DNA from: Spirochaetaceae bacterium
Lineage (GTDB): Bacteria > Spirochaetota > Spirochaetia > DSM-2461
DNA length: 64,000 bases
Assembly (NCBI GenBank): GCA_051531975.1
Contig: JAOPTT010000006.1
Location: 128,656 to 192,655 of the forward strand
Direction of reading: 5' to 3'
The translations under genes and the position numbers were made by a program. This document shows, one piece after another, positions 22,070 to 54,015 of the stretch. Under the pieces are notes generated by a model. That model did not search any database, was not told where the DNA came from, and worked only from the letters and a program-made list of their open reading frames with translations. Position 1 is the stretch's first letter, and every line of letters begins with the position of its first letter.

Positions 22070-23584
22070 ATGAATATATATAGTTATTCATCCTCAGGTT
22101 ATGACGGTGATTTAGTGCAGATCGAAGTAAATATTTTTAACCGGTCACTGCCTGGGATAGATATTGTTGGGTTACCAGGTGGTGCTGTTAGAGAATCAAA
22201 AGTACGGTTTAGGTCAGCAATTATTAATTCTGGTTATGAATTTCCCAAAGGCAGAGTAATTATTAATATGGCTCCAGCAGGGGAGAGAAAAGAGGGCGCT
22301 TGTTTTGATCTTCCTTTTGCATGCAAAGTTATTTCATTCAATTTAAAACAACATGAAAACACAGATTTTTTAGTTTTAGGTGAATTAACCTTAGATGGTA
22401 AAGTAAGGAAAGTAAAAGGTATTTTGGCTGCTGTTTCGAAAGCTTTTGACCATGGGATATGTAATTTTATAATTCCAAAAGAGAACTGTGATGAGGCTCT
22501 TCTATTAGAAAAAGGAAATGTATTTCCAGTTGAATCCTTAGTGGATGCATATAATGTAATATTAGGTAATATTAGTCCATTTGTTACCTCTAACCTAATA
22601 AATATAGAAGATAATACAATAAATGACTTTAGTGATGTCATGGGTCAAGAAGGTGTAAAAAGAGCATTGCAAATAGCTGTTAGTGGTGGTCATAATATAT
22701 TACTATTTGGGCCTCCAGGAGTTGGGAAAAGTCTTAGCGTCTCATGTTTAGATTCAATAATTCCAGACCTATTAAAAGAGGAATCCTTAGAAACAACAAG
22801 AATATGGTCCCTAGCAGGAAGACTAGAAAATGAATCAGTATTTATTAGAAAACCTCCAATAAGAAAACCACACCATGGAGCATCTTTAGAAGGTTTAGTA
22901 GGTGGAGGAAAACATCATCAGCCAGGTGAGATATCATTAGCTCATAACGGTTACCTGTTCCTAGATGAAATAGCAGAGTTTAAAACTTCCATAATTCAAA
23001 GTCTAAGACAACCTATGGAGGAGAGAAGGGTGTCTTTAAATAGAGCAACAGTATCAACTTGGTACCCTGCAAACTTCAGGTTAATAGCAACAGCAAACCC
23101 ATGTCCATGTGCAAACCTAGGTAAAGAAGATGGTATCTGTATGTGCTCCGAGAAAGAGATTAGACGTTACTGGAAAAGAATGGGTGGAGCAATTATGGAT
23201 AGAATAGATATTAGAGTTCCTGTTACTCCTGTTTCAACTAAAGTAATGCTTGGAGAAAAAGGTGCTAATTCAAAGGATATAAAGATGAAGGTTGATATTG
23301 CTGTTAACAAACAAAGAGCACGATATAAAGACTCTTTAATCACCTGTAATGCAAGAATCCCATCAGGAGAAATTGATAAGTTTTGCTTTCTGTCTGAAGA
23401 GTTAAAACAGATGTTTATAAAAGGTGTTAACTCACTATCTTTATCATCAAGAGGCTGCCACTCTGTACTTAAAATATCTAGAACTATTGCTGATTTAGAA
23501 AGGTCAGAAAACATAACAGAAAAACATATAATGGAAGCATTTACTTATAGAAGGTATGGGGATGAGGATTATTATTTTAATTAA
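22070..23584 (+). CDS. comM: ComM / YifB family Mg-chelatase-like AAA+ ATPase (intact)
   Basis: IVGLP...[45 protein letters not shown]...LKISRTIADL. Confidence 0.95.
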   Translation: MNIYSYSSSGYDGDLVQIEVNIFNRSLPGIDIVGLPGGAVRESKVRFRSAIINSGYEFPKGRVIINMAPAGERKEGACFDLPFACKVISFNLKQHENTDFLVLGELTLDGKVRKVKGILAAVSKAFDHGICNFIIPKENCDEALLLEKGNVFPVESLVDAYNVILGNISPFVTSNLINIEDNTINDFSDVMGQEGVKRALQIAVSGGHNILLFGPPGVGKSLSVSCLDSIIPDLLKEESLETTRIWSLAGRLENESVFIRKPPIRKPHHGASLEGLVGGGKHHQPGEISLAHNGYLFLDEIAEFKTSIIQSLRQPMEERRVSLNRATVSTWYPANFRLIATANPCPCANLGKEDGICMCSEKEIRRYWKRMGGAIMDRIDIRVPVTPVSTKVMLGEKGANSKDIKMKVDIAVNKQRARYKDSLITCNARIPSGEIDKFCFLSEELKQMFIKGVNSLSLSSRGCHSVLKISRTIADLERSENITEKHIMEAFTYRRYGDEDYYFN

Positions 23585-23679
23585 ATTTGAAACTTGTTTT
23601 GTAAGTTGTATAATTTTTTGATTAATGAAATATTTCTATATTAAAATTTCTAGTGAATTAGGGGAATTCCAAAGGGCAG

Positions 23680-23898
23680 CTTTTTGTTCTTGTCATTGAA
23701 ATAACTTTTATATTTCTGATTTTCTTGTCAGATTAAAGCAATCCTTGGAATAATTGGTTTCCAGTTGATAAGATAAAAAAGAGTGAACTCGATTAGATAA
23801 AATAGTGATTTAAGAAGTAGCATATTTATAGAATCGGCATATTACAATATCTGTGGAATTACTGAAATACTTTTTGGCGGTAATTTATTGTCAGTACG
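23680..23898 (-). mobile_element. Degenerate copy of the 5' end of the IS-like element at 24457-25570
   Basis: Aligns by eye to about 25349-25570 (agaagtagcatatt.atagaatcggcatatta...gaaata.ttttt...ggtaatt). Confidence 0.75.
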
Positions 23899-23982
23899 CC
23901 AACCACATTATCTGTCTATAGAAATCTTTCATCATTTCAAATTTTTAGTGAAGTCTTTTTACACTATAAATAGTAATTTCGC

Positions 23983-24165
23983 CATTCCATATGCGCTAAT
24001 TGAATTCAGTATCCCTGAATCACTAGTAAAAAACCACTTTTAAATCTGATATTTTTGATCTTTAGTCAGTCCTGTATGATAATAGACTATATCATCCCGT
24101 CCGGTTCTATTAACAAGGAAATTATTGGTTAGCTTTGTACTTACTCTACAGCAGTGGAAAATTAT
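23983..24165 (-). pseudogene. Fragment of a RecQ-like helicase C-terminal domain
   Basis: Manual translation IIFHCCRVSTKLT...DDIVYYHTGLTKDQKYQI*KWFFTSDSGILNSISAYGM resembles RecQ YHAGL...ATxAxGMG; internal stop. Confidence 0.6.
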
Positions 24166-24456
24166 AGAATGAGTTCGAACCCTATTTATCACACTTAACA
24201 GTGCCTCCTGTTTGTTTTATTTATTGCAGGCATTACAGAGTAAAAAATATTAGTTCTATACCCGTAGTAACAATTTAATAAGGTAAAACTAATTCAGATT
24301 AAAAATACTGTATCTTGATGGTATTTCTGGATTTAAAGAAAATTGAGTCGTTAATTTATCTGCATATCTATTGACGATATCCGTTAAATTGAAGATTCCT
24401 ACAAATATTTGAAAACATTTATCCCATGGTTAATGTAGAAATATTACCATATAAAC

Positions 24457-25570
24457 TCAGCTGGCTCTGTAATAATGATTGTGCAATCCGTAGAGGACCG
24501 GCTTCTTCTTCACTTTACCGGAGATATCAGGAGGTCTACCTTCTGGGATTGCTCCAAGACCTTGATGTGGGCGATATTGATTATAATATTCCATGTAGGA
24601 ATTTATGATATTCCTCAACTGCTTCTTTGAGAAGATGATAAACCAAACTAAACATTCCTGTCTTACAGATCTGAAAAATATCTCGGCATATGCATTGAGA
24701 TTGGGAGAGTAGGGAGTGGTTGCAACTCCATTGATTTCGTATACCTTATATGGGAAGTGTTTAAGTTCACCAGAGTTATCATGAATCAAATATGAGTAAG
24801 GATAAAGCTCTTCAAAATAAGAAAACTGACTTCTCAGGAACTTTATATTCGGATTCCGGGTGATATTATAATGAACAATATTCCTGCTCTTGAGTTCTAT
24901 AATGAAGAAGACATAGAATCTTTTAAACCCAAAGATATCAACAGTAAAGAAGTCACAAGCGAATATAGAGTGCCAATGAGATTTAAAAAAACCTGCTACA
25001 TGAATAATTGGGATTGATGTCTCCAGATTTACGGAAATCCTGAATGACTTTCCTGATTGTCTCTCTGGATATATCGATAGAAATCTTCTCTAACTCATCT
25101 TGGATGCGCATACAGCCCCAAAGATAGTTTTCAATCTTTAATTTATTAATGAGGAGTTTCATTGCTTTTGAAATAGGAGGTCTGCCGCTTTTTCTGGTTT
25201 TAGGTTTATTATAAGTCCAGTAATCTTTGATAGTTTTTTTCATTTGTAAAGAATTGTCTCTTGAGTTACAAGTGTGAATGTTCTTGTTTTTGGATTGCTG
25301 ATGAACATTGAACGGACAAACCATTTCTCTTGAATGGAGAAGGTGAGATTTATGTTCTTCTCATCAAAGTACCGTTTATATCTCTGGTTCTCTTGCCAGA
25401 TTAGAGAAATTTTAGGAATAATAGATTTTCTGTTGATGATGTAGAAGATGGAGAATTCAAGTAGTTGAAGCAATGATTTTAGAAGTAGCATATTCATAGA
25501 ATCGGCATATTAAAAGGGGGTCTGTGAAATTGTTGAAATATTTTTTGTCGGTAATTAGTTGGTAGAACGG
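24457..25570 (-). mobile_element. Frameshifted integrase-core (rve/DDE) transposase pseudogene with its 5' end
   Basis: Three ORF pieces: GRPPIS...ENYLWG..RIQDEL, then ACDFFTVD..KRFYVFFIIEL in the gap, then HDNSG..SPNLNAYAE..YYNQYRPHQGL; at least two frameshifts, one at a T7 run near 24985. Confidence 0.88.
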
Positions 25571-25796
25571 GAGTAGTACGTGAAAATCTAAAAAGCCATA
25601 GCACGGGCTTAATGCCTATATCAGTAATAAAAATTTATACTTCTTATTGTGGATGTATTTTCTTCTTATCCACTGTAAGTTTTTTTGGGATTAGTATTCT
25701 CTATTGACATCAATAATAATAAAACCTATCATTTTGGTAGGAATTAAAATATCTATTTTAGTAGGAATTGAAATATCTATTTTATAAGGAGCTTGT

Positions 25797-26315
25797 ATGA
25801 AAGTAAAGTATATGATTATTGTACCATTTCTTCTGTTTTTTCTTTTTGGATGTGACTTCTTAGGGTTAAATGAAGGTGATGATGGAACACCCATTACACC
25901 TTATAATGCCCTAGCAGGGCAATGGACGAGAACAGAGTTAATCGATGAAGTTGGGGATGATTTTGGCAAATATTGGTATGAGACTTACCAGTTTGAGGCT
26001 GATAGTATGCTTCAACTGAGTGGGATTTGTGATGATGCTGACTGCACTACTGGTGTCGTTCCAGATCCAAGCTCATCTCAATCTGTAACATATGGTGGAA
26101 CAGTAACTTCAACAGAAGGCCTCTCAGTCTATGAGGTCGATTTTGAGAACAGTGAAGGTGGTGAGTTTTATACTATAATCCATGTTGATTCTAGTGTGGA
26201 TCCACATGTTCTCACATTTGGTGATTCTGATGCAGATTCGGATTATGATGGTTCAACTGCTCTTAAACGTGTGCAAGGGCTAGGATCTAACCCGGAAACT
26301 TTTAGCAGACCATAG
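25797..26315 (+). CDS. Hypothetical acidic lipoprotein
   Basis: AAGGAG RBS, lipobox LFGC, L.G.W motif. Confidence 0.75.
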   Translation: MKVKYMIIVPFLLFFLFGCDFLGLNEGDDGTPITPYNALAGQWTRTELIDEVGDDFGKYWYETYQFEADSMLQLSGICDDADCTTGVVPDPSSSQSVTYGGTVTSTEGLSVYEVDFENSEGGEFYTIIHVDSSVDPHVLTFGDSDADSDYDGSTALKRVQGLGSNPETFSRP

Positions 26316-26320
26316 TAGGC

Positions 26321-26357
26321 TTTAATTTCTTCAGATTTAGTTTCTGAAGAAATTAAA
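26321..26357 (+). terminator. Hairpin terminator after the lipoprotein gene
   Basis: Perfect 15-bp stem tttaatttcttcaga / tctgaagaaattaaa. Confidence 0.75.
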
Positions 26358-26787
26358 TTTTTATTACTGTAATGTTTAACATCATTGATTTCCATTATAT
26401 GGCTGAGTGCACAATTTTGTATTAATTAAGAAAGTTCTCATTAAAATAAATCATTAGTATATAATCTAGAAAAAGTTATAAAATTAGTTAAATATTCAAA
26501 TACTGATTCACTACTACAACCTAATACAATAATAACTATTACTACTTAAAAGTTTAAAATAGCAACTAAAGCTGCCCATAGTGAAAACTTAATATGACAA
26601 AAGTAAATCAGATAAAAATTGATGCAACTCAATTGATCTCATAAGCTTTAATAAATTTGAATCAGAAATAAATCAGACATATGTTGGTTATAACCAGTAA
26701 ATTAAAGCTTTCCAACAATATTTTAAAACACCTATCCTGAGGATAATGACGAAACATTTTAATATTAGATTAGCTGGATCTGAAATA

Positions 26788-26927
26788 ATGACGATGTATA
26801 AGAGGGTAAACTCAAGTAATTTAAGAAATTATTTTTGAAGTAGGATATTTATAGAATCGGCAAGTTAAAATGTCTCTAAAATTACTGAAATATTTTATGA
26901 CCGTAATTTATTGTCAGTTCGGGACTA
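26788..26927 (-). mobile_element. Third degenerate copy of the IS-like 5' end
   Basis: gaagtaggatatttatagaatcggcaagtta...attactgaaatatttt...taatttattgtcagttcggga matches the 23806-23898 and 25474-25571 copies. Confidence 0.75.
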
Positions 26928-27099
26928 CCTGGTTTTCTGTTTTATACTATTATATATGTTTTGGGTTGAACTGAATTAGAGTTTTAATATAGATTTATAC
27001 TTTACAAATAATGGCTTCTTTTATTACATCACATAAACCTTTATACAATCTATAATAATTCAAAATGTTGGAATATTCAAATCTGGCTTTATGTCTATT

Positions 27100-27437
27100 C
27101 AGTTGGGGGAATTCCACTATTGGGCAAGAGATTGGTGTTTATTATATTAGAATTGAATACCCGAAAGATTGATAAGTGGAGTTTAACTGAAAATCAAAAT
27201 AGGGAGTTCGTCAGACAACAAATAATTTATTTCGCATATGAATATAAGGAATCTAAAACTCTTATATATGATAAAGCTCCGTAATTTACATCAATCGACT
27301 ATTCTGATTATTGAATTACATGAGTAAATATTTCTCTCGCTTCACCGAACATGAATGCATTTGTAGAAATATTGAACGTAACTATTAGAAGAGAAGCTCT
27401 CGATCATTTTCTCCAGTTTTCTGAAAAGAAAGTTAGA
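27100..27437 (+). pseudogene. Decayed integrase-core transposase fragment (opposite orientation)
   Basis: Manual translation SPNMNAFVEILNVTIRREALDHFLQFSEKKVR, plus RLVFIILELNTRKI upstream; several stops. Confidence 0.75.
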
Positions 27438-27649
27438 TGTAAATCTATGATATATCACCTAAACCAGAAGAGATTCGTGACTATAAAAAATGGACTAAAG
27501 AGTTAATTAAAATCATGTTTAAAGATGATTATATTAAAGATATATTTTAATATTAGACACATTAATCGGGTGTCTTTTTTTTAAAACCATTTGATTTACA
27601 TAAAAAGACACAATATAATATATATATATATAAAGAAAACGAGGGGTTT

Positions 27650-27937
27650 ATGATGGAAGAAGTCAAATATGAAAACTGTGAAAACGGTTCTATTGAAAAA
27701 GAAATAACATATGTAGATGGTATAAAACATGGCCTTGCTAAATCATATCATCCATTGGGAACATTACGAAGTGTTGGAACATTCTATAATGGAGAACTTC
27801 ATGGTGTAAGTGTTGTATATCATCTCGATGGTACTACTCTTGCAGGTGTAAAAGTCTTTGAACATGGTAAAAGTGTTGGACCTACAACAGTATATGAAAA
27901 AGATGGTTCTCTAAGAACAATTGATAAAAAAGATTAA
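27650..27937 (+). CDS. MORN-variant / YwqK-like repeat protein
   Basis: Repeats ENGSIEKEITYVDGIKHG..SYHPLG..FYNGELHG; GAGG RBS. Confidence 0.8.
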   Translation: MMEEVKYENCENGSIEKEITYVDGIKHGLAKSYHPLGTLRSVGTFYNGELHGVSVVYHLDGTTLAGVKVFEHGKSVGPTTVYEKDGSLRTIDKKD

Positions 27938-27951
27938 ACATACAAATAAAC

Positions 27952-27979
27952 AGACATCTTACCAGGGTGTCTATTTTTT
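27952..27979 (+). terminator. Terminator after the MORN gene (similar hairpin upstream at 27555-27582)
   Basis: agacatc...gggtgtct plus T tract; upstream agacac...gtgtct plus T tract. Confidence 0.65.
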
Positions 27980-28283
27980 GTCCAAAATATATAAAAAACG
28001 TACTATAAAATCTCATTATTACTTTTTATTTACACAAGATAACTTTAGATAACAACAAGAAAGCATAGTTATTGAAAAGGTGATTGTTATGATTATTGAA
28101 GAGTATATGGTCTTGGGTTATTTTTTACATCTGCCATCAAAACATAGACTTTTTCTAATATACAGATATATAAATTATGTTCATATTCCTTCGCTCATTA
28201 CTTAATACAATATTCAAGATAATTTTCAATATGCTGTACCTACCACTTAATCCAATGATTTTGATTTATTAAATCTTTAATAA

Positions 28284-29189
28284 TTAGTGAAGGGCATAAT
28301 ATTCCATTTTTTGGTACTTCTATCATGAACAGCTAAAAGTTTATCAGTTTCATGTTTAGATTCAATAATTCCAGACCTCTTAAAAGAAGAATCTTTAGAA
28401 ACCACAAGAATATGGTATTTAGCAGGCAGACTAGAAAATGAGTCTGTGTTTATTAGAAAATCACCAATAAGAAAACCTCACCATGCAGCATCATTAGAAG
28501 GTTTAGTTGGTGGTGGTAAACATCATCAGCCAGGTGAAATATCTTTAGCACATAACTGTTACCTATTTTTAGATGAAATCACAAAGTTTAAATCTTCCAT
28601 AATTCAAAGTCTAAAATAACCTATGGAGGAGAGAAGGGTATCTTTAAATAGAGCCACAGTTTCAACTTGGTACCCTGCAAACTTCAGACTAATAGCAACA
28701 GCAAACCCATGCCCTTGTGCAAACTTAGGTAAAGAAGATGGTATCTGCTTGTGTTCCGAAAAGGAGATTAGACGTCATTGGAAACGAATGGGTGGAGCTA
28801 TAATGGATAGAATTGTTATTAGACTTCCTGTAACACCTGTTTTTACAAAAGTCATGATTGGGCAGAAAGGGGCAAATTCTAAGGATATAAAGGCGAAGGT
28901 TGATATTGCTGTTAACAGTCAAAGATCATGATATAAAGACTCTTTAATAACCTGGAATGCCATAATACCATCTGGTGAAATTGATAAGTTTTGTTATCTA
29001 TCTGAAGAATTAAAACAGATGTTTATTAAAGGTGTTAATTCACTATCCTTATCATCTAGAGGTTGCCACTCAGTACTTAAATGTAGAACCATAGCTGATT
29101 TAGATGAATCCATAAACATAACATAAAAACATATATTAGAGGCATTTACATATAGAAGGTATGGAGATGAGGATTATTATTTTAATTAG
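28284..29189 (+). pseudogene. comM: comM 3'-half copy 1 (matches comM about 22680-23584)
   Basis: Collinear from the GHNIL motif to YRRYGDEDYYFN*; Walker A scrambled; several in-frame stops. Confidence 0.95.
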
Positions 29190-29382: not shown

Positions 29383-30360
29383 ATGAATGTTAATAATAGA
29401 ATTAACATGTATTTTGTTACATTTCTTATAGTATTTTTCTTAATTGGATGTGTTGGAACTCCTTCTGTTGAAAAAGAACAAAGGCTTGCTTTTAATGGTT
29501 CTACTATAAATAATAGATTAACATTAGAGGGTAAAAGCATTACTTTACCCGAGGATTGGTCTTTTGTTCATAATATAGATAAAGAGGGGACTCTATTTAA
29601 TTTTCGTTCACCTGAAGGTATCGAGGGAGGACTTGAATATATCTCTTTTGATTATGAAATAGATATTGAAGAGCTAAATGACTTTTACAAAGACTTTGTA
29701 TTTCAATCTGATGAAAGAATTCATGTTAGTAAAATTGAACATGATAAATTGGGTAGTGTTACTAGCTTTACGGGTATTGCTAATAATCGAAATATTTATA
29801 CTCTTTTATTAAGTGAAGGAAGCAATGTTACTTTTATATATTTCTCTAGTTCCGAAGACTTTCCTATAACAACTCAAGAAATATCAATAATCCTAGATAC
29901 ATATTCCATTGAAGATAGGAGTTGGATGTCCGTACGAGAAAAACCGGGTATGCCATTATTTTCCAGTGTTGATAATACCTGGATTTGGTATAATGATTTT
30001 AAAGATGGATTTTACATAGCTAAAGATATAGAAGATGCTTATGGAGATATTATTGCTGGGATATGGTCGTTAACAACTTTAGAACTTGATGAACTTAAAA
30101 ACAGAGATGAATTTAATATACAACCCTTTACATATAACTTTACGATTCAAAATAAAGATATTCTTTGTACTGTTTATGGGCAAAAAAGTAGTTCTGATGA
30201 TTCTTCTTTGTATATCATCTTCGAACTAAACGGTACTACATATTGTCTTAATTTGATGCAGAATGTTATTGAAGCTGATATCAATCCTAGTACATTATTA
30301 GTAAAACTGAATATACAAGAACTATTTGACTATTATTTACTATTTTCTGAGGGTATATAA
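29383..30360 (+). CDS. Hypothetical lipoprotein
   Basis: Lipobox LIGC; 325-aa ORF; AGGTGG RBS. Confidence 0.75.
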   Translation: MNVNNRINMYFVTFLIVFFLIGCVGTPSVEKEQRLAFNGSTINNRLTLEGKSITLPEDWSFVHNIDKEGTLFNFRSPEGIEGGLEYISFDYEIDIEELNDFYKDFVFQSDERIHVSKIEHDKLGSVTSFTGIANNRNIYTLLLSEGSNVTFIYFSSSEDFPITTQEISIILDTYSIEDRSWMSVREKPGMPLFSSVDNTWIWYNDFKDGFYIAKDIEDAYGDIIAGIWSLTTLELDELKNRDEFNIQPFTYNFTIQNKDILCTVYGQKSSSDDSSLYIIFELNGTTYCLNLMQNVIEADINPSTLLVKLNIQELFDYYLLFSEGI

Positions 30361-30361
30361 A

Positions 30362-31951: not shown

Positions 31952-31963
31952 TAGAAATATTTA

Positions 31964-31999
31964 GCATAATATTTTTGGTACTGATTATGTTAGAATTCA
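31964..31999 (+). repeat. Short remnant of the comM-copy 5' junction
   Basis: gcataatatttttggtactgattatgttagaattca versus cataatattcttattttggtacttctatcgtgtttagattca at 39182. Confidence 0.45.
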
Positions 32000-32297
32000 G
32001 TTTATATTTTCTATATATACAACTTTTAAATCAAATAAAGCTATAGTCAATTGATTTAATTTGTTGTTAAGTGGAATTCTAGAATATGATATATTTAATA
32101 CTATTAGAATTGAACATCCTATGCATTTCTATATTAAACTAACTCAATAATAGATATTAAACTAAGGATTACAACTTATGAAATTATCTCTGAGAATTTG
32201 ATTATGGAAATCTTTCACTTTTAGTTTCATAAGCAATATTAACTACAGGACAAATTAAAAATATTGTATAATACTATTTTTGTTCTATAATTTAATT

Positions 32298-32760: not shown

Positions 32761-32930
32761 ACCCACGACAGGTTTGGGACATTTTTAGTTTAGTAATATA
32801 TCCTTGTTCAACAAATGATGAAACGCCACTAATCATTTATCGATGTAATTTTATAATTGTGTAAATATATCTTAATTCTATAGAGAACATAATATCCTAT
32901 ATTTTGATACTCCTATCGACTACAGCTAAT
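32761..32930 (+). repeat. Leader plus comM-junction repeat unit (homologous to 39073-39210; leader part also at 60997-61080)
   Basis: CAGGTTTGGGACA at 32769 and 39085; acataatatcctatattttgatactcctatcgactacagctaat matches copy 1 at 33/44 nt. Confidence 0.75.
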
Positions 32931-42855: not shown

Positions 42856-42867
42856 AATAATAGATAT

Positions 42868-43725: not shown

Positions 43726-43920
43726 TATCATCCTCCGTTTGTAGGATATTATTTAGGAAATTGGTAATGAAATCAAGATAATATACACTAATATTGATAG
43801 TATAATTATTTCTATAATTTGTAATCCTTAATTTAAGGGATTGAAGATCCTGAGAATTTAAAGTTGAACACATATAAAATATATATGAAGGGAATGGTAA
43901 AGCTCTGAAAAAGTTTTAGA

Positions 43921-44607
43921 TTTAGTTGGAGGAGGTAAACATCATCTATCAGGAGATATCTCTCTAGTTCATAATGGTTATATGTTCATAGATGAAATAG
44001 CTGAGTTTAAAACTTCTATAATACAAAGTTTAAGAAAGCCAATGGAGGAGAGAGTGGTATCTTTGAATAGGGCAAATGTTTCAGCTTGGTATTCTGTAAA
44101 TTTTAGACTAATAACAACAACTAACCCATGCTCATGTGTAAACTTAGGTAAAGAAGATGGTATTTGTATGTGCTCTTAAAAAGAGATTAAACGATATTGG
44201 AAACGAATAGGTTTCGCAATTATAGATTGGATTGAAATAAGGGTTTCTGTGTTTCCTATTCAACTAAAGTAATGCTTGGGATAATGGTGCTAATTCAAGG
44301 GATATTAAGATGAAGTTTTATCTTGCTGTTAATAGACAAAGAAAACGATATAAAGACTTATTAATCTCCTGTAATGCTAAGAATATCATCTATTGAAATT
44401 GATAAGTTTTGCTACCTATCTGAAGAATTAAAACAGATGTTTATTAAAAGTATTAACTCCTTGTCTTTATCATCAAGAGGTTGTCATTCTGAACTTAAAT
44501 GTAGAACTATTGCTGATTTAGAAAGGTCAGAAAACATAACATAGATACATATAATAGATGCATTTACTTATAGAAGGTATAAAGATGAGGATTATTATTT
44601 TAGTTGA
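43921..44607 (+). pseudogene. comM: comM copy 3, right piece (comM about 22893-23584)
   Basis: Resumes at LVGGGKHH and runs to YRRYKDEDYYFS*; many stops and frameshifts. Confidence 0.93.
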
Positions 44608-44703
44608 ATATGTCCAATCCAAGTTTATGTTTTTATTTCAATTTTAAATCACCACTTCCATTTTATAATTGACAATAAATAAGCTGTCTTATATAATTAT
44701 TTT

Positions 44704-45912
44704 ATGAAAAAGTTATATTTCTTTCTAATATTTATCTTAATTAGTTTTAATTTAATATATTCTGAAAATAGAGTAGCTCTAGTAATTGGCAACGGAAATT
44801 ATTCCAGTAGTCCTCTTAAAAATCCTGTTAATGATGCAAAAGATATGGCATCAACTCTTAAGACTCTAAATTTTGAAGTTATACTTTTAACAGACTCTAC
44901 TAAAAGAGAAATTTTATCAGGTTTTAAAACCTTTAGTAATAAATTAAATTCCGAGAGTGTAGGGCTTTTCTATTATGCAGGACATGGAACACAAATAGAT
45001 AATAAGAATTATTTAATTCCTATAGGTGCTAACATAGAAACAGCTTCTGATGTTGAATTCGAAGGTGTGGTCCTAGACCGTCTTATTAGAACCATGGAAG
45101 ATTCTAAGGTAAATAAGAGTCTAATATTTTTAGATGCGTGTAGAGATAATCCTTATGCTTCTTCAAGTAGATCAGGAACTAGAGGTTTAACAGTCGTTTC
45201 TACAACTTTAAGTGCAGATTCTGCCGGATCATTAATATCTTTTGCAACCAGTCCTGGATCGGTTGCTGCAGATGGTGATGGCGATAATGGTATATTTACA
45301 ACCGCATTGTTAAAATATTTGACAGAACCTGGGTTAGAAATAAACCAAATAATGGTAAAAGTTCGTGCTAATGTCATGGAAAATACAAATGGACAACAAC
45401 AACCATGGACAAATGTTTCGTTAACAGAGGAGTTTTACTTTTCTAAAAAAATTATCGAAACTGTTGAAACTGTTGAAGTTATTAACACTGATAGTCCTTT
45501 AGTGGTTGAACCCGTAATTACTCCTAACTCCAAAATAAACAAATGGTATATTGATACAGGTTTCGTTTTTTTATACCACGATTCAACAGAATCAGGTCAA
45601 ATTGCTTTTCCTGGTATTAGTATTGGTGCTTCATATACAATTTCCAATTTTATATCTTTAGGTATAGCAGGAGCTTTAGTTAATAAAATGTTTATAAATA
45701 CTGGTACAGAAATGGAAGATGAAGGGGAAGAAGGCTTATACCCTGGAGGTTATGTTACTGTATCTATTGGTAATGTTAAAAATGGAGCTGCAATTAATGT
45801 AATTCTGGGACTACCAATTGGTTTCGGTATTTCATACAAGAACCTTTTTGTTAACTTCTTAACACTTGTAGATTATGGTGGTTCAGGTTTACAAATTGGT
45901 TATTCATTTTAA
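44704..45912 (+). CDS. Secreted caspase-family (peptidase C14) protein with beta-rich C-terminal domain
   Basis: RVALVIGN, LKNPVNDA, catalytic YYAGHG and LDACR, QQPW; signal peptide; terminal IGYSF. Confidence 0.9.
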   Translation: MKKLYFFLIFILISFNLIYSENRVALVIGNGNYSSSPLKNPVNDAKDMASTLKTLNFEVILLTDSTKREILSGFKTFSNKLNSESVGLFYYAGHGTQIDNKNYLIPIGANIETASDVEFEGVVLDRLIRTMEDSKVNKSLIFLDACRDNPYASSSRSGTRGLTVVSTTLSADSAGSLISFATSPGSVAADGDGDNGIFTTALLKYLTEPGLEINQIMVKVRANVMENTNGQQQPWTNVSLTEEFYFSKKIIETVETVEVINTDSPLVVEPVITPNSKINKWYIDTGFVFLYHDSTESGQIAFPGISIGASYTISNFISLGIAGALVNKMFINTGTEMEDEGEEGLYPGGYVTVSIGNVKNGAAINVILGLPIGFGISYKNLFVNFLTLVDYGGSGLQIGYSF

Positions 45913-46525: not shown

Positions 46526-49504
46526 ATGAAAATTAAAAGAACAGGAATTATTAAAAGTTATTTATTTATATCAATCTTATCTATTATATTAGGCGCTTGT
46601 TCTAACCCTTTGATTACTGACCTGATGGAAACACTGGAAAATGATGTCGTTGAAGCTCAAGCCGGTGACCCTCCTGTTTTGGAATCTTTGAATGTTGCAG
46701 ATGGCGCTGTAGATATCTCCACCTCAATTGTTCTCTCAGTCGAATTCAAAGTTGAAATGGATCCTCTTACAATAATAAGTGAAAATATAACCCTTTCTAA
46801 AGCCCAGAATGATGTCGTTATAAGTTCTGCTATTGTATATGACGATGCTACAAAAACATTTTCTCTAACTCCTTCGTCAACTCTTGATAAAGAAGCTGAA
46901 TATAAGCTTTCTATCACTACCAGTGTTAAGAGTCTACAGGGTGCTGCTCTTGAGAGTGAAATTGTCAGAAATTTTACAACCAGATATTTTCATGATACAG
47001 AAGTTGGAATCCAACTGTATTATTCCAGCAACAATCTTGTCTTGAATTCTGGAGCACCAATTTATATTGAATTCTGGTCATCTCCTCTTCAATATGTTCC
47101 CAGTAATACACCAACAACGATCCTTGTTCTTTCATCCCCTGTAATAACATCTGCCGGTAAAATTGCTATTCCTATTTCATCCTTTCCAGCGGGTTTTTCT
47201 TCAGGTATGTTTAAGTTTTTTCATGATATAAATGGTAGCTATGGATCTGATTCAGATTCAGATGATAGTGCAGATTCTATTTATTGGTATAACTCTTCTG
47301 GTAGTGGTAATATGTCTCCTGATGATAGTGAAGATTCCGGTTATGAATTCATGGTAAACCAGGATGTTAATGATCGTTTTATGTTTGTAGATTCTGGGGG
47401 GACTTCTATTCCTGTTGATGGAAGTGGTTTGCCAACTTCTACTCCTGCTTTCTACAGTTTGAAAGATAATTTTCTTTTATCAGCAGGTAATGGATATACT
47501 ATAAACTATACTGATGGAAGTGCATTTGCAGCTGATCCTTTTGAAACAGCTGAATCTTCAAATAACTATAGAAACATTGATCATGGTACTTACGAGATCG
47601 CTAGAAATCTTCATTCTCTGGATGATGTTGATTATTTTACATTTACACCAGCATCTAGTGATGTTTATGAAATTCGTGTTAATGAATCAGAATTTGAATT
47701 TCAGGTGGGACTGTATTCTAGCGAGTCTAATATGTTAACTGATTCTAGTCCTCTTGCTACTCCGAACAATGGTTCAGCTGCCCGTGTTGTAAACGGCACT
47801 GGGACATTTCTTACAGGAGGATCTACATATTATATACGAGTTGAAAGCCCTTCCAGTGGAATGGGACCCTATGAGATTGGATATTTTTACAAACCTGCCA
47901 CACCAGATGCTGCTGAAGATGCAGATGATGTTATAGGCACCGCTCCTGCATTAACCTTAGGAAGGTCAAATGCGCTTACCAGAACCCTAGAAGCAGGTAG
48001 CGACACAGATTATTATTCTTTTGACCTGGTTAATGGATGGGATTACATTGTTGAAGTTGTAGAAGATCCAACTTATTTCAATTTTTCAGCAGAATCCAGA
48101 AATATTGATTTTAATCTCAGGTTTTACAAAGATGGTACACCACAGGGATCCTTTGCTCCATTTCCTAATACGATGATTATCCCAGGTTCCGATGACTGGA
48201 ATTACCCCGATACAAGCAACTACCATATTGAAGTTCAGAACAACTCAACACCGATTGGTGATGAACAGGATCTACCAAGTGGTCAGTACAAGATACTTAT
48301 AACATATTCTTTCGACGGGAGTGATCAGGCTAATAATCCAAATACAGACCCAACAAATGAATATGATAATTGGAACGAACACGGTCCGGCCTCTTACCAG
48401 GCATCGGTTTATGTCTCTCCAGGAACTAAGGGAAGGGAACGGACTATCTACTCTACTACTGAAGTAAATCCTGAGGATGATGTAGACTGGATAAGGTTTT
48501 ATGTTGCAGATATATATGATTATTACAATTTTAAGGCTGAACCTATAGCTGGAGCCGACGGAGTTGTTGTTGACTTTGAAATCTATGGTTCAACTACTGT
48601 ATCAAGTGAGATTGTACCGGATACAGGTTCAGGCTCAGTAGCTTCATCTCAGCAATGGGTATCAGACACATCAATAAGAACAGCCAGTTTTTATCCACTT
48701 ACTGCCCGGACTTATGTTGATGAATCAAATCCAAGCTCTGAAGAACACTACTGGTGGGCGAAGGTTACAAGGGACTCTTCACATTCGGGTAATCCTATAA
48801 CCGGAGCTTATAACTTTAAATATCTGACAGGTCCCGACTGGATGGATATAGATTATCCGGACTCAGAGGTTGATGTATATTCAGGAACTTATGCTGAAAA
48901 TAATATTGTTTATACCGGCGGAATGGATGAAACGCCATGGATAGGAAAACCATTTTCAGATGCTGGCTATGATTTTGAGACAAGAAATGAACTTATCTGG
49001 GGAAATATGGGTGGAAATCCAGATATTGAGATAGAGTACAACTCATTGTTTAGAAGAGATTATAATTATTCTTCTTCAGGTGAATGGGACGGTGTGACTG
49101 ATAAAGGTACAGATTTTGATTTCAAGTGGTTCCAGATGCCTACAAGTCCACCAACTATTATACCTTTTAATATTGTAATCTACTCAAGGGCTGAATATAC
49201 AATACCAGTTAAACTTAGTGTCTGGCGGATTACTCAGGCTCAATGGACTACATTATCATCAGACAGATATATCACTGAAGCTGAACTAAACGCAACAGAT
49301 ACGCCAACACTTTATTATACTAGTTATGAAACAGGTGAAGAAACCGATAAACTTGAAATTATTGATTATTCAGATGTAGCGGAAACAGATTATATATTCA
49401 TGAAATTTGAAATTGATGATTCTAGAACAACATATGTAGACGGTGACGGAGTGACACAGAATTATTCGAATTCTGGAGCATATCAAATCTGGATATTCAG
49501 ATAG
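46526..49504 (+). CDS. Large surface lipoprotein with Ig-like (Big_5) and PPC-like domains
   Basis: Lipobox LGAC; F...MDP.TI..LTP...L...Y Ig motif; repeated D.DYF/Y.F motifs. Confidence 0.8.
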   Translation: MKIKRTGIIKSYLFISILSIILGACSNPLITDLMETLENDVVEAQAGDPPVLESLNVADGAVDISTSIVLSVEFKVEMDPLTIISENITLSKAQNDVVISSAIVYDDATKTFSLTPSSTLDKEAEYKLSITTSVKSLQGAALESEIVRNFTTRYFHDTEVGIQLYYSSNNLVLNSGAPIYIEFWSSPLQYVPSNTPTTILVLSSPVITSAGKIAIPISSFPAGFSSGMFKFFHDINGSYGSDSDSDDSADSIYWYNSSGSGNMSPDDSEDSGYEFMVNQDVNDRFMFVDSGGTSIPVDGSGLPTSTPAFYSLKDNFLLSAGNGYTINYTDGSAFAADPFETAESSNNYRNIDHGTYEIARNLHSLDDVDYFTFTPASSDVYEIRVNESEFEFQVGLYSSESNMLTDSSPLATPNNGSAARVVNGTGTFLTGGSTYYIRVESPSSGMGPYEIGYFYKPATPDAAEDADDVIGTAPALTLGRSNALTRTLEAGSDTDYYSFDLVNGWDYIVEVVEDPTYFNFSAESRNIDFNLRFYKDGTPQGSFAPFPNTMIIPGSDDWNYPDTSNYHIEVQNNSTPIGDEQDLPSGQYKILITYSFDGSDQANNPNTDPTNEYDNWNEHGPASYQASVYVSPGTKGRERTIYSTTEVNPEDDVDWIRFYVADIYDYYNFKAEPIAGADGVVVDFEIYGSTTVSSEIVPDTGSGSVASSQQWVSDTSIRTASFYPLTARTYVDESNPSSEEHYWWAKVTRDSSHSGNPITGAYNFKYLTGPDWMDIDYPDSEVDVYSGTYAENNIVYTGGMDETPWIGKPFSDAGYDFETRNELIWGNMGGNPDIEIEYNSLFRRDYNYSSSGEWDGVTDKGTDFDFKWFQMPTSPPTIIPFNIVIYSRAEYTIPVKLSVWRITQAQWTTLSSDRYITEAELNATDTPTLYYTSYETGEETDKLEIIDYSDVAETDYIFMKFEIDDSRTTYVDGDGVTQNYSNSGAYQIWIFR

Positions 49505-49595
49505 CATGATAATAGTTGCGAGCGTAGATTACCGTACAATTATCAACCTGTCCTGTTTTGAAGAATATACTAATTACGATTAAAGGAAGAACAAT

Positions 49596-51680
49596 ATGAG
49601 AGAAGTCAGATATTATTTAATTATTTGTTTATTTTTAAGTCTAGTCACTTTGTTATCAGCCCAGAATTCAAATTTCTCTATTGATCTCAATCCTAAAATA
49701 AGTATACCAATGCGGACAAGCGCCGACCTCTATTCAATTGGTGGAGGTGCAGTTTTATCCGGTACATATGATCCATCATTACCTTATTATATTAAGGGAG
49801 GAATAGGATATGAATTAATCCCCACTCTAGCTACAGAAAATATGAATTTAATAACAGGTTCTATTGGTGGTGGATTACGACTTGATATTGGTGATTTTAT
49901 TACTTACCGCCTAGGTGCTTATGGTGGTGCTTATCTTGTCTCATACGACGATATAACAGCGTGGAACCCTTATGGTGGCGCAGAGACCGGATTACAGTTT
50001 AATATTACAAAGTCAATTCAAGTTTCGTTAATGGGATCATATGATTATTATGTTGGAGAAATTCTTACAACTCCATCTATTTCAGAAGAGTCTTTTTTTG
50101 AAGGAGTATCTGCATTTATAGGAATTTCCTTTAATCCCGGAGCTATCTCAGGCTCTGGTATAAGACGTCCTCGAATGGAAATTTTCCCACCTTCGTTTAA
50201 TTCAATCTTTCCAGTATTTTATCAATACTACAACGATAATACTTTAGGTTCTGTAATAATTCGTAATGATGAAAAAAATACTATTACAGATGTTAAGGTA
50301 AGTTTTTTTGTTAATCAGTTTATGGAAGCCCCAAAACTAAGTGCAGTAATAGATGAATTAAAGAGTGGGGAAGAAGTAGAAATACCTTTATATGGTTTAT
50401 TTAAAGATTCTGTTCTGGGAGTTACTGAAGTTACTACAGTAACTGCACAGATTTTTGTTGAATATAATGAAGATGAAGATATCTTAAATACCTCTTTTTC
50501 TGAAAGTATAAAAATATTAAACCGAAATAATATGACCTGGGATGATGATAGAAAAGCTGCTGCATTTGTTACAGCCAATGATCCTACAGTTCTTAGATTT
50601 GCCCGAAATATTGCTTCATCAATAAGAAGTGATAGAAAAACTGCTGTAAATGAAAATCTGAGAAATGCAATGGCTATTTTTCAGGCTTTAAATATTTTTG
50701 GTATGAGATATGTCATCGACCCTGATTCGTCCTATATTGAATTATCTGAAAATGAAAAATTTCTTGATTTTCTTCAATTTCCCCAACAAACATTGGATTA
50801 TCGAACAGGAGACTGTGATGATTTATCTATTCTATATTCTGCACTACTTGAATCAGTTGGAATTCGAACTGCATTTATTACTATTCCAGGTCATATTTAT
50901 ATGGCTTTTGCTCTAGATATGGATGAAAAAAAAGCAATTAAAACATTTTCACAACCAAATAATTTAATTATTGTAGATGATGAGGCCTGGGTACCTGTTG
51001 AGATAACAATGATGAAAGATGATTTTCTGTCTGCCTGGAAAACAGGAGCAAAACAGTGGAGGGAAAATAATCCCGTAGGGCTCGCAGGGATGTATAAGAT
51101 AAGAGATGCATGGAAAACTTATTCTCCTACAGGATTTGCATCAACAGCTTTAGATGTGAATGTTCCTCAAACAACAGAAGTTTTACCTAATTACTTAAAA
51201 ATTTTGAATACTTTTATTAAACAGGAAATTGGTCCTCGTGTAATAGATCTGAAAAAAAGAATTATTGCTAGTAACAATAATCCCCGGGTAATAAACAGTC
51301 TAGGAATATTATATGCTAGATATGGTTTATATGATGAAGCTAGTGAACAATTTAATCTTGCTGTTAAAACAGATGAATATCTTCCGTCCCTTATTAATCT
51401 TGGAAATATTGCTTTTTTAAATAAAGAAACTGAAATAGCACGTGGTTATTTGGAGCGTGCCAGAGTTGTTAGGGATGATCATCCAAAAGTTCTTGTGAAA
51501 CTTGCTAGAATACATTTTGATCTTGAAGAATATAAAAAGGCAACTAAAAGGTATAGAGAAGCAGAGGTCATTGATCCAGAAATTGTCCAGGCTTATAGTT
51601 ATATTGTTAACGAAAATAAAGATTCAGCTAGAGCCTCTGCAGCACAGGAACGTAATATAGTTTCATGGGATGAGGAATAA
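49596..51680 (+). CDS. Secreted protein with beta-barrel-like N-terminus, transglutaminase-like core and TPRs
   Basis: QFPQQTL..RTGDCDDLSILY, IPGHIY, C-terminal NSLGILYARYG TPR. Confidence 0.75.
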   Translation: MREVRYYLIICLFLSLVTLLSAQNSNFSIDLNPKISIPMRTSADLYSIGGGAVLSGTYDPSLPYYIKGGIGYELIPTLATENMNLITGSIGGGLRLDIGDFITYRLGAYGGAYLVSYDDITAWNPYGGAETGLQFNITKSIQVSLMGSYDYYVGEILTTPSISEESFFEGVSAFIGISFNPGAISGSGIRRPRMEIFPPSFNSIFPVFYQYYNDNTLGSVIIRNDEKNTITDVKVSFFVNQFMEAPKLSAVIDELKSGEEVEIPLYGLFKDSVLGVTEVTTVTAQIFVEYNEDEDILNTSFSESIKILNRNNMTWDDDRKAAAFVTANDPTVLRFARNIASSIRSDRKTAVNENLRNAMAIFQALNIFGMRYVIDPDSSYIELSENEKFLDFLQFPQQTLDYRTGDCDDLSILYSALLESVGIRTAFITIPGHIYMAFALDMDEKKAIKTFSQPNNLIIVDDEAWVPVEITMMKDDFLSAWKTGAKQWRENNPVGLAGMYKIRDAWKTYSPTGFASTALDVNVPQTTEVLPNYLKILNTFIKQEIGPRVIDLKKRIIASNNNPRVINSLGILYARYGLYDEASEQFNLAVKTDEYLPSLINLGNIAFLNKETEIARGYLERARVVRDDHPKVLVKLARIHFDLEEYKKATKRYREAEVIDPEIVQAYSYIVNENKDSARASAAQERNIVSWDEE

Positions 51681-51708
51681 CGTTTATGAAATATTTCTAT
51701 GTTAAAAT

Positions 51709-52278
51709 ATGGTGAAAAATTGTACAATTAAAAATATATTTCCAGGTGAATATTATGTTTCAAATAGAGGCGAAGTAATTTCTACAATTCTTGGTTCATG
51801 TATATCAGTTTGTCTTTACGACACAGTCAATAACATTAGTGGTATGAATCATTTCATGTTACCAGAAAGACTATCATCAGCTTTTGTTACTAATGATTAT
51901 GATTTTGATAGTTCATCACTTCTTAACAATTCTCTACGTTATGGTGCTTACTCTATGGAGTTATTGATAAATGAGATTATTAAATTGGGTGGTGAAAAAA
52001 AGTACTTGAATGCTAAGGTCTTTGGTGGTGGTAAAGTTCTCAATTATATAAGTGATAGACAATCTATTGGAGAGCAAAATACTGATTTTGTATTAGCTTT
52101 TTTAAAGGCTGAAAACATTGAAGTTATCAGTAAAGATGTAGGTGGTAATACTGGTCGTCAGATTAAGTATTATACAGATCGAGATGTAGTATATGTAAAG
52201 AATATACCTATAAGTGGTATTCCAGAAGTTGAAGAAACTATACCAGAAACTGGTAAAGTTATACTCTTCAATATATAA
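51709..52278 (+). CDS. cheD: Chemoreceptor glutamine deamidase CheD
   Basis: PGEYYV, TILGSCISVCLYD, GMNHFMLP, AKVFGGG, DVGG..GR. Confidence 0.93.
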   Translation: MVKNCTIKNIFPGEYYVSNRGEVISTILGSCISVCLYDTVNNISGMNHFMLPERLSSAFVTNDYDFDSSSLLNNSLRYGAYSMELLINEIIKLGGEKKYLNAKVFGGGKVLNYISDRQSIGEQNTDFVLAFLKAENIEVISKDVGGNTGRQIKYYTDRDVVYVKNIPISGIPEVEETIPETGKVILFNI

Positions 52279-52289
52279 AATAGAGAGTC

Positions 52290-52712
52290 TTAATTAAAGA
52301 ACTCTTTAAAGGAATCAAAACCTTTAAATTTTGCATCTATCAAAGCAACATAAGTTTCTTCATTAGATGAGAAAAAAGTTCCTTTTTTTGAGCTATAATG
52401 AACAGCTTGATTTTTTAAAATGCTTTCTTGAATATTTTTATCCACTATAATAATAAAAGTACTGGTGCTATCAGGATTATCTTTTAATCTATTTGAATGT
52501 GATTTCATATACTCTAAAAAATCTTGAGGACCCAAATCCCACAGTCTAAAATCCAAAATCATAACCCAAGGTTTTTCTATTTTTGGTCTAATTATATCTA
52601 ACTCTTTTTCAAGATCGATAAAGAGTTCAACATTTGTTGATCCTTCTATACTTACATATAATATATCAAGAAATAATTTAATTTTGTATTTACCATGAGC
52701 ACGTTTAATCAT
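52290..52712 (-). CDS. Hypothetical protein (STAS/SEC14-like)
   Basis: 140-aa ORF; W.MILDFR.W.LGP motif. Confidence 0.55.
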   Translation of the reverse strand: MIKRAHGKYKIKLFLDILYVSIEGSTNVELFIDLEKELDIIRPKIEKPWVMILDFRLWDLGPQDFLEYMKSHSNRLKDNPDSTSTFIIIVDKNIQESILKNQAVHYSSKKGTFFSSNEETYVALIDAKFKGFDSFKEFFN

Positions 52713-52870
52713 AATTTAATATTAAGTCAGACAAAGGTGCATTTCAAGAGCTACAATTTACTTCTGTGTAATATTCTTCTTAATACAGATATAAATATAC
52801 TCTTAAACTCTCGAGAATATTCTTTTCCGTCAAAGTACTTAAAATCAGTTAATGAAGATTTTTATTATGA

Positions 52871-53752
52871 CTAGAAAGGTATGATAGGTATGTCATTATT
52901 GCAATTATTATTTTTTAGTTCAAAAAAGTTATTCCAGTTAATACCTCGTTCATTGGCTGCAACTTTCATCTCTTTTAATGAGGGCTCAGATAATTCAGGT
53001 GTTCTGGACACAATTAGAAAAATATTATCGATTCTAGGTCTTGGAATTTGTGTTTTAGCACAGATGGCAAACATTCTAGCATCATCTGTTTTATGCAGAA
53101 GTTTCCAAACCTCAGTTGTTTCTGTGTCCCACATTACTAATGTGGTTCCAAACTGTCTCTCTTCTATTCCATGTGCAGCAATATATTCTGCTAACTGTCG
53201 CCTTATAAGGCCTCTCATAGCTGTTTTAACCTGATATTCGATATGTAATTTCCAATCACCATCTGTTGCCTCAACAAAATTCATAAAAGAACAGTCCCAG
53301 TTATCCCAGGAATCTGTATGCGTTCTCCACCACTTCCCACTATGTTCGTTAAGGTTCATTTTTAGGGGTGGATTATTAAAAGATATAGGTTTCTGTGGAG
53401 TTACATCATCATCCTTATACATATTAGCGCATTTTATTACTGCACTCCTAGAAAAAGATGCTAGCTGTTTTGTTGGGTATTCATCTAAAATTCGTGCACT
53501 ACATATATCAGAATCTTCAGGTACTTCCATATGTTGTAACTCTTTAATTTGGTTTTGAACCCGTTTGCTATTTTTGTCTCCACATTTAGTCAATTCCTGA
53601 AGACCTTCTCTACTTTCAGGGTCTCTTAGACAGGCAAATAGTTCTGGACCACATTTTATTATCATACATCCCAAAACGGTTCTTTTGAGTAGAATAATAC
53701 CTATGATAAGTAGAAATAACGTAATAATAGAAATTAACAAAGCTATTGGCAT
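52871..53752 (-). CDS. Membrane-anchored violaxanthin de-epoxidase-related lipocalin-like protein
   Basis: N-terminal TM, Cys-rich CMIIKCGPELFACLRDP, lipocalin-like GKWW and IVSRTPEL, C-terminal NNNC; family call from recalled motifs. Confidence 0.55.
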   Translation of the reverse strand: MPIALLISIITLFLLIIGIILLKRTVLGCMIIKCGPELFACLRDPESREGLQELTKCGDKNSKRVQNQIKELQHMEVPEDSDICSARILDEYPTKQLASFSRSAVIKCANMYKDDDVTPQKPISFNNPPLKMNLNEHSGKWWRTHTDSWDNWDCSFMNFVEATDGDWKLHIEYQVKTAMRGLIRRQLAEYIAAHGIEERQFGTTLVMWDTETTEVWKLLHKTDDARMFAICAKTQIPRPRIDNIFLIVSRTPELSEPSLKEMKVAANERGINWNNFFELKNNNCNNDIPIIPF

Positions 53753-53831
53753 ATGTACCTCGAATTTTAGTATAGGTTTACATCTATGAGTGTGCAAGAG
53801 TTTTATACACTATTAAATACAGCTAGTAGTT

Positions 53832-53909
53832 TATTAACATTCTTTATCACAAAGAGGTTGTCATTTCCTTATAGAATATATGGTGTATGAGGATCATTGT
53901 TTAAGTTGA
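53832..53909 (+). pseudogene. comM: Highly decayed comM 3'-terminal remnant (copy 4)
   Basis: tctttatcacaaagaggttgtcatt joined to cttatagaatatatggtgtatgaggatcattgtttaagttga; matches the comM and copy 3 termini with an internal deletion. Confidence 0.75.
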
Positions 53910-54015
53910 ATTCTTGTGCTTTTACTTAAACATGGTAGCTTTTTAGGATATATCTTGTTTTCTTAGTATTCTTAAATTAAAGTTATAATATAATGATCTT
54001 GAAAGAGGTATAAAG

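Follow-up and report, generated by a model that had tools for sequence, protein, structure and literature searches.

The Mg chelatase gene, comM, is the target of 12.4% of site-specific large serine recombinases (LSRs) in the survey of Durrant et al. (PMC10083194). For LSR cluster1141, the attB/attP core spans the Walker A G-K-T codons of comM (supplement file 3 of the same paper), and clusters 1021 and 1396 cross the gene about nine codons earlier (same supplement). Disruption of comM has been read as a means by which parasites blunt transformation (PMC12378983). Islands that have no integration module are also described, with 15 cases at the ssrA gene of Dehalococcoides (PMC3146451), and a helper can excise and transfer whole tandems of cis-mobilizable elements (CIMEs) (PMC5704250). 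The subject here is the comM locus in a 64,000-nucleotide stretch from the genome of a marine member of the Spirochaetaceae, called the window (G000:C6:128656-192655; the assembly, G000, is 5.46 Mb in size and 98.5% complete), where an intact comM, which encodes a DNA-uptake helicase, is followed by a series of copies of its 3′ half, interspersed with unrelated genes. With a probability of roughly 0.55, this locus is read as a fossil accretion stack at an LSR site inside comM, in which units composed of a 3′ half, cargo and a P arm would owe their movement to an LSR island, now lost, that split comM. The comM-related elements of the locus are the following.

22070..23584, + strand: intact comM/yifB, 504 amino acids, the anchor of the stack (TIGR00368, 540 bits against a cut-off of 362)
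22691..22760, + strand: attB-like site in Walker A, with the predicted crossover AA at 22727-22728, between Gly219 and Lys220
28295..28336, + strand: P arm (42 nt, the last two being AA) of attR-like junction 1, with the motif TTTTGGTACTTCTA at 28309
28335..29189, + strand: copy 1, comM nt 658-1515 (codons 220-504), 87% identity, three stops
32888..32958, strand not assigned: free attP-like site, with a copy-1-like left arm up to the AA at 32928-32929 and an inverted-repeat right arm at 32945-32958
39182..39208, + strand: P arm of attR-like junction 2, with the same 14-nt motif as junction 1
39209..39867, + strand: copy 2, comM nt 673-1333 (codons 225-444), 90% identity, five stops and two frameshifts
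42761..42855 and 43921..44612, + strand: copy 3, comM nt 731-1515, 82% identity
45943..45973, + strand: possible comM remnant, codons 337-345, with 24/31 nt and 8/9 residues kept
53829..53912, + strand: the most decayed comM tail, approximately nt 1357-1391 and 1469-1518

Copies 1 and 2 both follow one non-coding arm, distinct from comM in spite of a likeness to its codons 207-216; in copy 1, this arm ends in AA, after which comM resumes from Lys220 with the same residues in other codons. At the free site (32888-32958), which an earlier first-pass annotation of this DNA had missed, the left arm is followed by an inverted repeat and not by comM. The 14-nt arm motif occurs at 28309, 39195 and 32902, and in inverted form at 32945. 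Junction 2 has lost 27 nt between two TCATG-like pentamers, and about 130 nt further upstream of it resemble the DNA before the free site (p 0.0005). The order of the locus is B-B′ (intact comM), P-B′ (copy 1), P-P′ (32.9 kb) and P-B′ (copy 2). The window contains no attL (B-P′), and comM is not split into attL and attR halves.

These junctions probably represent the attR, attP and attB anatomy of an LSR. P, B and P′ overlap by two bases at the junction, and serine integrases have a 2-bp core (PMC3783163). Measured from the core, the motif TTTTGGTAC in P is 4 nt more distant than its likeness in comM; for LI integrase, a TTTAGTATC motif is shifted by 5 bp between attP and attB (PMC3783163). 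The predicted crossover also falls at the codons of a known comM LSR, that of cluster1141 in the supplement mentioned above. The arm motif pattern has five matches in the window against 0.65 expected, a circular count in that the pattern was built from these sites. In a non-circular test with the copy-1 arm as query, the free site has 9/42 mismatches versus 14 for the next best position in the genome, and it is the only inverted pair in the genome with at most two mismatches per arm (0.05 expected). A search of 185,579 genomes for the junction pattern gave three matches, none of them beside comM. Of the earlier suggestion that the 3′ half is a homology arm or att-like module, the att-like part stands, whereas a plain homology arm does not agree with an arm of serine-integrase type, a 2-bp overlap and a free attP-like site.

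The copies themselves were mapped by self-BLASTN and alignments, and the whole assembly was searched by BLASTN, TBLASTN and nhmmer. All copies lie on the + strand, the strand of intact comM, and these searches of the 5.46-Mb assembly found no comM piece outside the locus and no copy of the 5′ half anywhere. The first-pass annotation had described an intact comM followed by same-strand copies of its 3′ part only, with a different cargo gene shortly after each, and this description is confirmed; the next genes start 194, 365, 97 and 107 bp beyond the copies. Its copy starts at 28284 and 39177 belong instead to the shared att-like arm, which resembles comM, and homology to comM begins at 28335 and 39209. 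The DNA upstream of copy 1 was also considered as comM nt 488-560 (p 0.003), but an insertion sequence (IS) end on contig C2 fits much better and this candidate was rejected.

The state of the copies is uneven. In copy 1, lesions are evenly spread and show no gradient along its length. Copy 2, which has lost its 3′ end, has only synonymous changes and 0 lesions in codons 225-318 (94 codons with no amino-acid change or stop) and about 23 lesions in codons 319-444 (126 codons), a boundary picked after inspection of the data. The decay with distance from comM that had been proposed is thus not strictly ordered, since copy 1, though nearer, is more damaged than the initial 94 codons of copy 2. In copy 3, an insert of 1.06 kb interrupts comM at nt 825-829; 5-bp direct repeats flank it (42851 and 43921), and it lacks TG...CA ends. 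The segment at 45943-45973, formerly listed as a copy, is borderline only (p ~0.04 against the whole gene); it ends at the commonest LSR site of comM. The tail at 53829-53912 consists of two pieces with shuffle p values of 0.0005 and 0.0015. Because every copy is a pseudogene and no LSR was found, the array looks fossil.

A second line of evidence is the divergence of the copies. Relative to intact comM, the rates of synonymous and nonsynonymous substitution (dS and dN) are 0.565 and 0.050 for copy 1, 0.335 and 0.036 for copy 2, and 0.528 and 0.111 for copy 3, with third positions accounting for 74/112, 39/61 and 67/129 differences, respectively. The third-position excess is significant for each copy (p <=1e-5), and dN/dS ranges from 0.09 to 0.21. 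Neutral decay in place would give a dN/dS of about 0.5, so most of the divergence arose under selection in separate lineages. The copies would therefore seem to be displaced working alleles that acquired their stops later, and the expectation that they resemble alleles of other lineages is borne out by the synonymous excess. The four 3′ halves form one clade (97%); its inner order has support of 50-81, and the phylogeny does not show the order of displacement.

The intact gene carries a comparable signal. ComM differs from its relative P0122 at 53/219 residues before codon 220 and at 29/285 after it, and the resulting 5′/3′ ratio of 2.38 is the highest of 105 pairs (the next is 1.57 and the median 1.13). 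Trees of the two halves disagree. In the 3′ tree the two proteins are sisters (100%), and the 3′ half of intact comM groups with the copies and P0122; the 5′ tree shows neither this sister pair nor any grouping of the 5′ half with P0122. Codon 204 gives the best breakpoint (permutation p 0.001), and with all nine third sequences the informative sites confine it to 204-221, also when the variable linker is left out. This discordance implies that a ComM 3′ half passed from one lineage to another, with the exchange point at the att site or beside it. Among named homologues, the nearest to intact ComM is P0127 (Thiospirochaeta perfilievii according to its source), at 72% identity.

The block behind comM is lineage-specific. 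In both congeners in which the gene is assembled (G021 and G022; 2/2), comM adjoins a convergent gene or is separated from it by a single small gene; in G000 this neighbor keeps its orientation but is found about 126 kb downstream. These congeners are syntenic with the window from 2.6 to 22 kb, upstream of comM, at 66-78%, whereas against 23.6-63.6 kb they give comM and scattered domain matches only; the region is absent behind comM in both. Within the block, remnants of comM are confined to the first 30 kb.

A scheme that accounts for this arrangement can be built on the pairings that LSRs allow, attP x attB and attL x attR (PMC3783163). The repeated unit would be comM from Lys220 to the stop, followed by cargo and a P arm. 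Such a unit brings its own 3′ half, so that its entry would re-form a whole comM and push the earlier working half downstream behind the P arm. A comM-disrupting LSR island could excise at the farther attR, carrying with it the next half and its cargo; the excised island and half would enter the attB of a new host, and the island would then excise alone at the nearer attR. The result would be a comM repaired with the donor half, with the old half of the host behind the P arm. The P-P′ site at 32.9 kb would be a by-product, formed when an attR-bearing module (copy 1 and cargo 1) reacted with a resident element, the kinase island, at its attL; this island would earlier have split comM and pushed copy 2 aside. 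This reaction predicts the order comM half, cargo, P-P′, island, P-B′, which is the order observed from copy 1 to copy 2. All of these steps would be canonical attP x attB and attL x attR reactions, in agreement with the accretion and cis-mobilization known from CIMEs (PMC5704250), and RecA, acting on 0.85 kb of homology, could add, delete or patch units as well. Overall, the locus suggests that mobile DNA repeatedly mended its target, comM, while piling new genes behind it. The sequential addition of units of 3′ half and cargo behind intact comM, as first proposed, is likewise supported by the sequence.

Similar use of comM can be found elsewhere. The site about nine codons upstream is also used in Sinorhizobium (L214) and in the viral loci L153 and L147, each with an LSR. 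In a provirus (G438), a piece of comM begins at G219, and an LSR lies about 9.5 kb upstream of it. Separately, the phage genome L049 (PP197248.1) carries comM amino acids 180-347 beside its serine integrase. In L043 and L046 (G347 and G260), comM 3′ pieces from about amino acid 345 adjoin an open reading frame (ORF) of 360-400 amino acids; that of L046 weakly matches the IS1595 family, and the part of comM used by LSRs may therefore be a transposase target too. Two further candidates were discarded, as the L136 piece ending at amino acid 222 is an IS3 break and the common break near amino acid 230 among short ComM proteins is a pattern made by the length filter.

Several observations weigh against an origin in LSR reactions. 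With an LSR defined by PF00239, PF07508 and PF13408 together, none was found in G000 (PF07508 has 0 hits and PF13408 none over the cut-off), TBLASTN and hidden Markov model searches reveal no LSR remnant in the 129-kb region, and only 3/38 family genomes contain an LSR, none at comM. The G438 record has no attL, and its LSR is thus not tied to the site. The inverted repeat is asymmetric about the AA (its arms are 12 and 15 nt away) and, at 57 bp, longer than the LI attP (~50 bp type); the motif shift is 4 rather than 5, and the right arm of attB is without the motif. Copy 3, its att arm lost, and the comM tail have no arm. The attP pattern is found in 0/37 relatives, and its one match in IMG/VR, between phage head genes, is a chance match. 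The first duplication is not explained by the LSR scheme, and proteins cannot tell whether comM or P0122 received the 3′ half. Lastly, the evidence comes from one genome, with no second strain, circle or helper-bearing intermediate seen.

Of the alternatives, the one that survives best, as a possible though rather doubtful account, starts from a founding LSR scar and has the stack grow by homologous recombination in natural transformation. Donor DNA arranged as comM, cargo, and a P arm joined to a 3′ copy would offer two homology arms (the 5′ half and the 3′ half) to any recipient comM, and a double crossover would insert the unit with no recombinase, in keeping with the lack of an LSR among the genes found. 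ComEC and DprA homologues are present in G000, and ComM promotes the integration of heterologous DNA (PMC12378983). Copy 2, with its lesion-free start and damaged remainder, looks mosaic, and a mirror-image stack exists at recQ in the same genome. However, homologous growth by itself makes no P-P′ site at 32.9 kb. Under it, the junction end of each copy should also be the more decayed one and the far end the younger, but in copy 2 the trend is the opposite and in copy 1 there is none; the runs tests for mosaicism are weak (p 0.02-0.30), and the clean patch of copy 2 may be a later gene conversion. In addition, the alleles differ by 10-13%, a level of difference that hinders RecA exchange. The two routes can coexist, and the favored LSR route was probably aided by homologous recombination.

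The recQ stack just mentioned lies at G000:C12:131701-145712, where an intact recQ-like helicase gene is accompanied by upstream partial 5′ copies of 78-95% identity, separated by toxin-antitoxin-like, IS and kinase genes, in mirror image of the comM stack. Two recQ copies on C12, one on C17 and one in the window break at the same codon and continue into shared non-recQ sequence, and the recQ fragment in the DNA directly behind comM (cargo 0) apparently links the two stacks. It is possible, if only tentatively so, that there exists a general class of integrase-less gene-repairing modules, each with the entire back half of comM (or, for recQ, the front half), which ride on or follow the splitting LSR islands, mend the gene broken by these, swap the ATPase half of ComM between species and then spread by transformation alone, the spent halves conceivably serving as decoy attB sites that shield the working gene.

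The pair of stacks, each with a whole anchor gene, could also be taken as a sign of active, integron-like capture run by the host with a recombinase encoded elsewhere on the chromosome, and the genome does contain two resolvases and four full tyrosine recombinases; moreover, the arm motifs are better preserved than the coding parts. This is nonetheless unlikely. Those recombinases are on other contigs or far away (PF00589 matches are on C17, C8, C3 and, about 400 kb off, on C6), with none beside the array, and among the 35 ORFs scanned there is no recombinase or conjugation family, nor any TnsABC or TniQ gene. A 2-bp overlap misfits tyrosine recombinases, the core of junction 2 is lost, all copies have stops, and the site is found in none of the 37 relatives. 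Less probable still is duplication of the gene end in place, whether IS-driven or by unequal crossing-over, followed by neutral decay and unrelated insertions between the copies. IS debris does lie right behind comM, and copy 3 and the tail are ragged-ended, but the observed dN/dS is far from the expected one, and the shared start, foreign arm and free inverted site would be left unexplained; the synonymous excess, together with the att anatomy, already goes most of the way to refuting this account. An assembly artefact, in which a metagenome assembler strung together alleles of co-occurring strains, can be set aside almost entirely: the sole run with this DNA (X1) is a metagenome that may be the source, and is hence not independent, and no listed piece (8/369) spans the full stretch, but the copies differ by 10-22% and carry stops, unlike alleles of live strains, the window is without N, and X1 contigs of flat depth (33-44 over 23000-42990) cross four junctions without a single difference: both ends of copy 1, the right-hand end of copy 2 and the beginning of copy 3.

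Comparable stacks were sought in other genomes. A tandem comM 3′ copy is found in 0/37 family genomes. In 400 further spirochaete genomes, with at most six candidates scored per genome, none has more than two comM hits, versus six in G000; among the two-hit genomes, 10 of the 11 were examined (G359 was left out), and these have paralogues, splits or pieces on other contigs, none combining an intact comM with a tandem 3′ copy. Across 5426 E. coli genomes, the final 418 bp of yifB turn up at only 10 extra places, and at most 10 of these genomes have the layout. A metagenome scan with the single ComM protein returned nothing and one with an alignment only distant loci, among the matches listed. 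Of 80 metagenome loci, chosen by likeness to this ComM among the matches listed, 72 have a full-length comM (44 with at least 3 kb downstream), and 3/72 full-length loci have same-strand downstream 3′ pieces, two in L059 and one each in L076 and L129. L059 (Ga0334892_1005003) has an intact comM, 3′ copies at 3395-3749 and 6852-7134 and unrelated cargo; its first copy begins at the common LSR site near amino acid 347, and inspection of its ORFs gave no recombinase. No second comM piece is present within 20 kb in Nocardia L228. A literature search, with subscription journals and bioRxiv supplements outside its reach, gave no report of an intact comM with stacked 3′ halves. Other arrangements were noted as well: in L115, 79 bp from the start of comM are repeated 4 kb upstream of the gene; in L126, 470 bp of the 3′ end recur in inverted orientation immediately before comM; and, in the family members G009 and G018 (L040:10526-11251 and L041:3289-4041), a comM-like ORF of about 250 amino acids that lacks approximately residues 220-338 lies beside rnhA.

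The DNA between and beyond the copies comprises the following features.

23585..28294, strand not assigned: cargo 0, with IS3/IS481-like debris, a recQ fragment, a lipoprotein-like ORF and a MORN-repeat ORF
23672-23898, 24457-25569 and 26650-27437: IS3/IS481-like debris in cargo 0
23983-24198, - strand: recQ fragment in cargo 0, which ends at the break point of the C12 recQ copies
25797-26315: lipoprotein-like ORF in cargo 0
27650-27937: MORN-repeat ORF in cargo 0
29383..32714, + strand: cargo 1, three ORFs of 325, 541 and 144 amino acids
33291..38852, - strand: hybrid sensor kinase of 1853 amino acids, flanked by P′ (32945) and P (39195)
40232..42529, + strand: ankyrin-repeat protein of 765 amino acids, GC 39-45% against ~31% around it
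42868..43731, - strand: TtcA-like gene in the copy 3 insert (insert span 42851-43925)
44704..45912, + strand: caspase-domain (Peptidase_C14) protein
46526..53797, strand not assigned: further cargo, with a Big_5 protein, a TPR protein, CheD, an ORF without identification and a lipocalin
From 54016: second hybrid kinase, after the comM tail

The kinase segment is a putative integrase-less island. None of the cargo 1 ORFs matches Pfam or NCBIfam; those of 325 and 541 amino acids have paralogues elsewhere in the genome. A second ttcA, at 35% identity, resides on contig C14. The point of insertion into copy 3 is 1-3 codons from amino acids 272-276, a comM split point in several viral loci, one of which has an adjacent LSR. 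The promoter region of the Big_5 gene contains an ~82-bp tandem duplication (window 46307-46503), and upstream of comM a 78-bp tandem repeat of about seven copies, 71-78% identical, lies inside a 503-amino-acid ORF (window 12279-12851). From 54016 to G000:C6:279693 there are about 96 kb more that do not adjoin comM in the congeners and that, by ORF inspection, contain sensor kinases, caspase-like genes, a formate dehydrogenase-like cluster and others. This part has no clear comM remnant or att arm; a 62-point alignment at ~145 kb was rejected as barely above the tail of the control region (55).

The gene comM is among the most frequent targets of mobile DNA, and the locus appears to record the outcome opposite to its disruption, with the gene mended, the cargo kept and the catalytic half exchanged. 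The scheme offers a testable route to host recovery through canonical LSR reactions only, together with a concrete att site (arms, core and target codon), and it suggests that “comM pseudogenes” beside an intact comM mark an island hot spot.

Integrons, to which the locus had been likened, are ordered arrays of unrelated genes beside an anchor, the newest first, and are characterized by intI, attI, Pc and attC. An array next to an anchor is common to both, but the units here are multi-gene, lie on both strands, extend up to 6 kb and begin with half of a host gene. The locus has no integron integrase, neither attI nor Pc is evident, and no attC-type cassettes (single genes each followed by an attC hairpin) were seen in it, although no search with an attC model was made, and the unit boundaries are att arms fused to comM. 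In the strict sense, the likeness to an integron is not supported.

Closer parallels are found among islands at fixed sites. AbaR/Tn6022 and I-B1 CRISPR-associated transposons likewise make comM a hot spot for mobile DNA, but they use Tn7-like transposases at a site near amino acid 280 and inactivate comM, unlike the locus described here (PMC11406308, PMC12378983). Tn7-like elements of the AbaR/Tn6022 kind are recognized by TnsABC/TniQ genes, TG...CA ends and a 5-bp target duplication; the insert in copy 3 is the only one here with 5-bp repeats. The Dehalococcoides ssrA islands resemble it in their serine recombinase (CcrB-like), intact anchor and downstream direct repeats, each after a conserved non-gene motif; their repeat is a 20-bp RNA-gene end and many of them keep an integrase, in contrast to the 860-bp protein-coding half of comM (PMC3146451). 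CIMEs and tandem accretion match it in being integrase-less, in keeping att arms, and in stacking at one site with chimeric att sites between neighbors (PMC5704250); the corresponding features here are the att arms of the kinase island without integrase or transfer genes, the chimeric P-P′ and the absence from the site in relatives. The CIME cases in that source involve tyrosine integrases and short repeats of gene 3′ ends, whereas the site here is mid-gene and serine-type, with 0.86 kb of coding sequence (ATPase core and lid). With the LSR islands and prophages at comM, the locus shares the target gene, the cluster1141 codons, the 2-bp overlap and, with an imperfect fit, an inverted-repeat attP with a shifted motif (PMC10083194). 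Those islands, in that source and in L214, L153 and L147, split comM and encode an LSR, whereas here comM is whole, several allelic 3′ halves are present and no LSR was found. Judged by its anatomy, the locus is probably a case of tandem accretion in which the shared site is that of an LSR, and not an integron; it is unusual in its mid-gene site, its 0.86-kb replacement half, its preserved P-P′ and its apparent cross-lineage swap of the ComM ATPase half.

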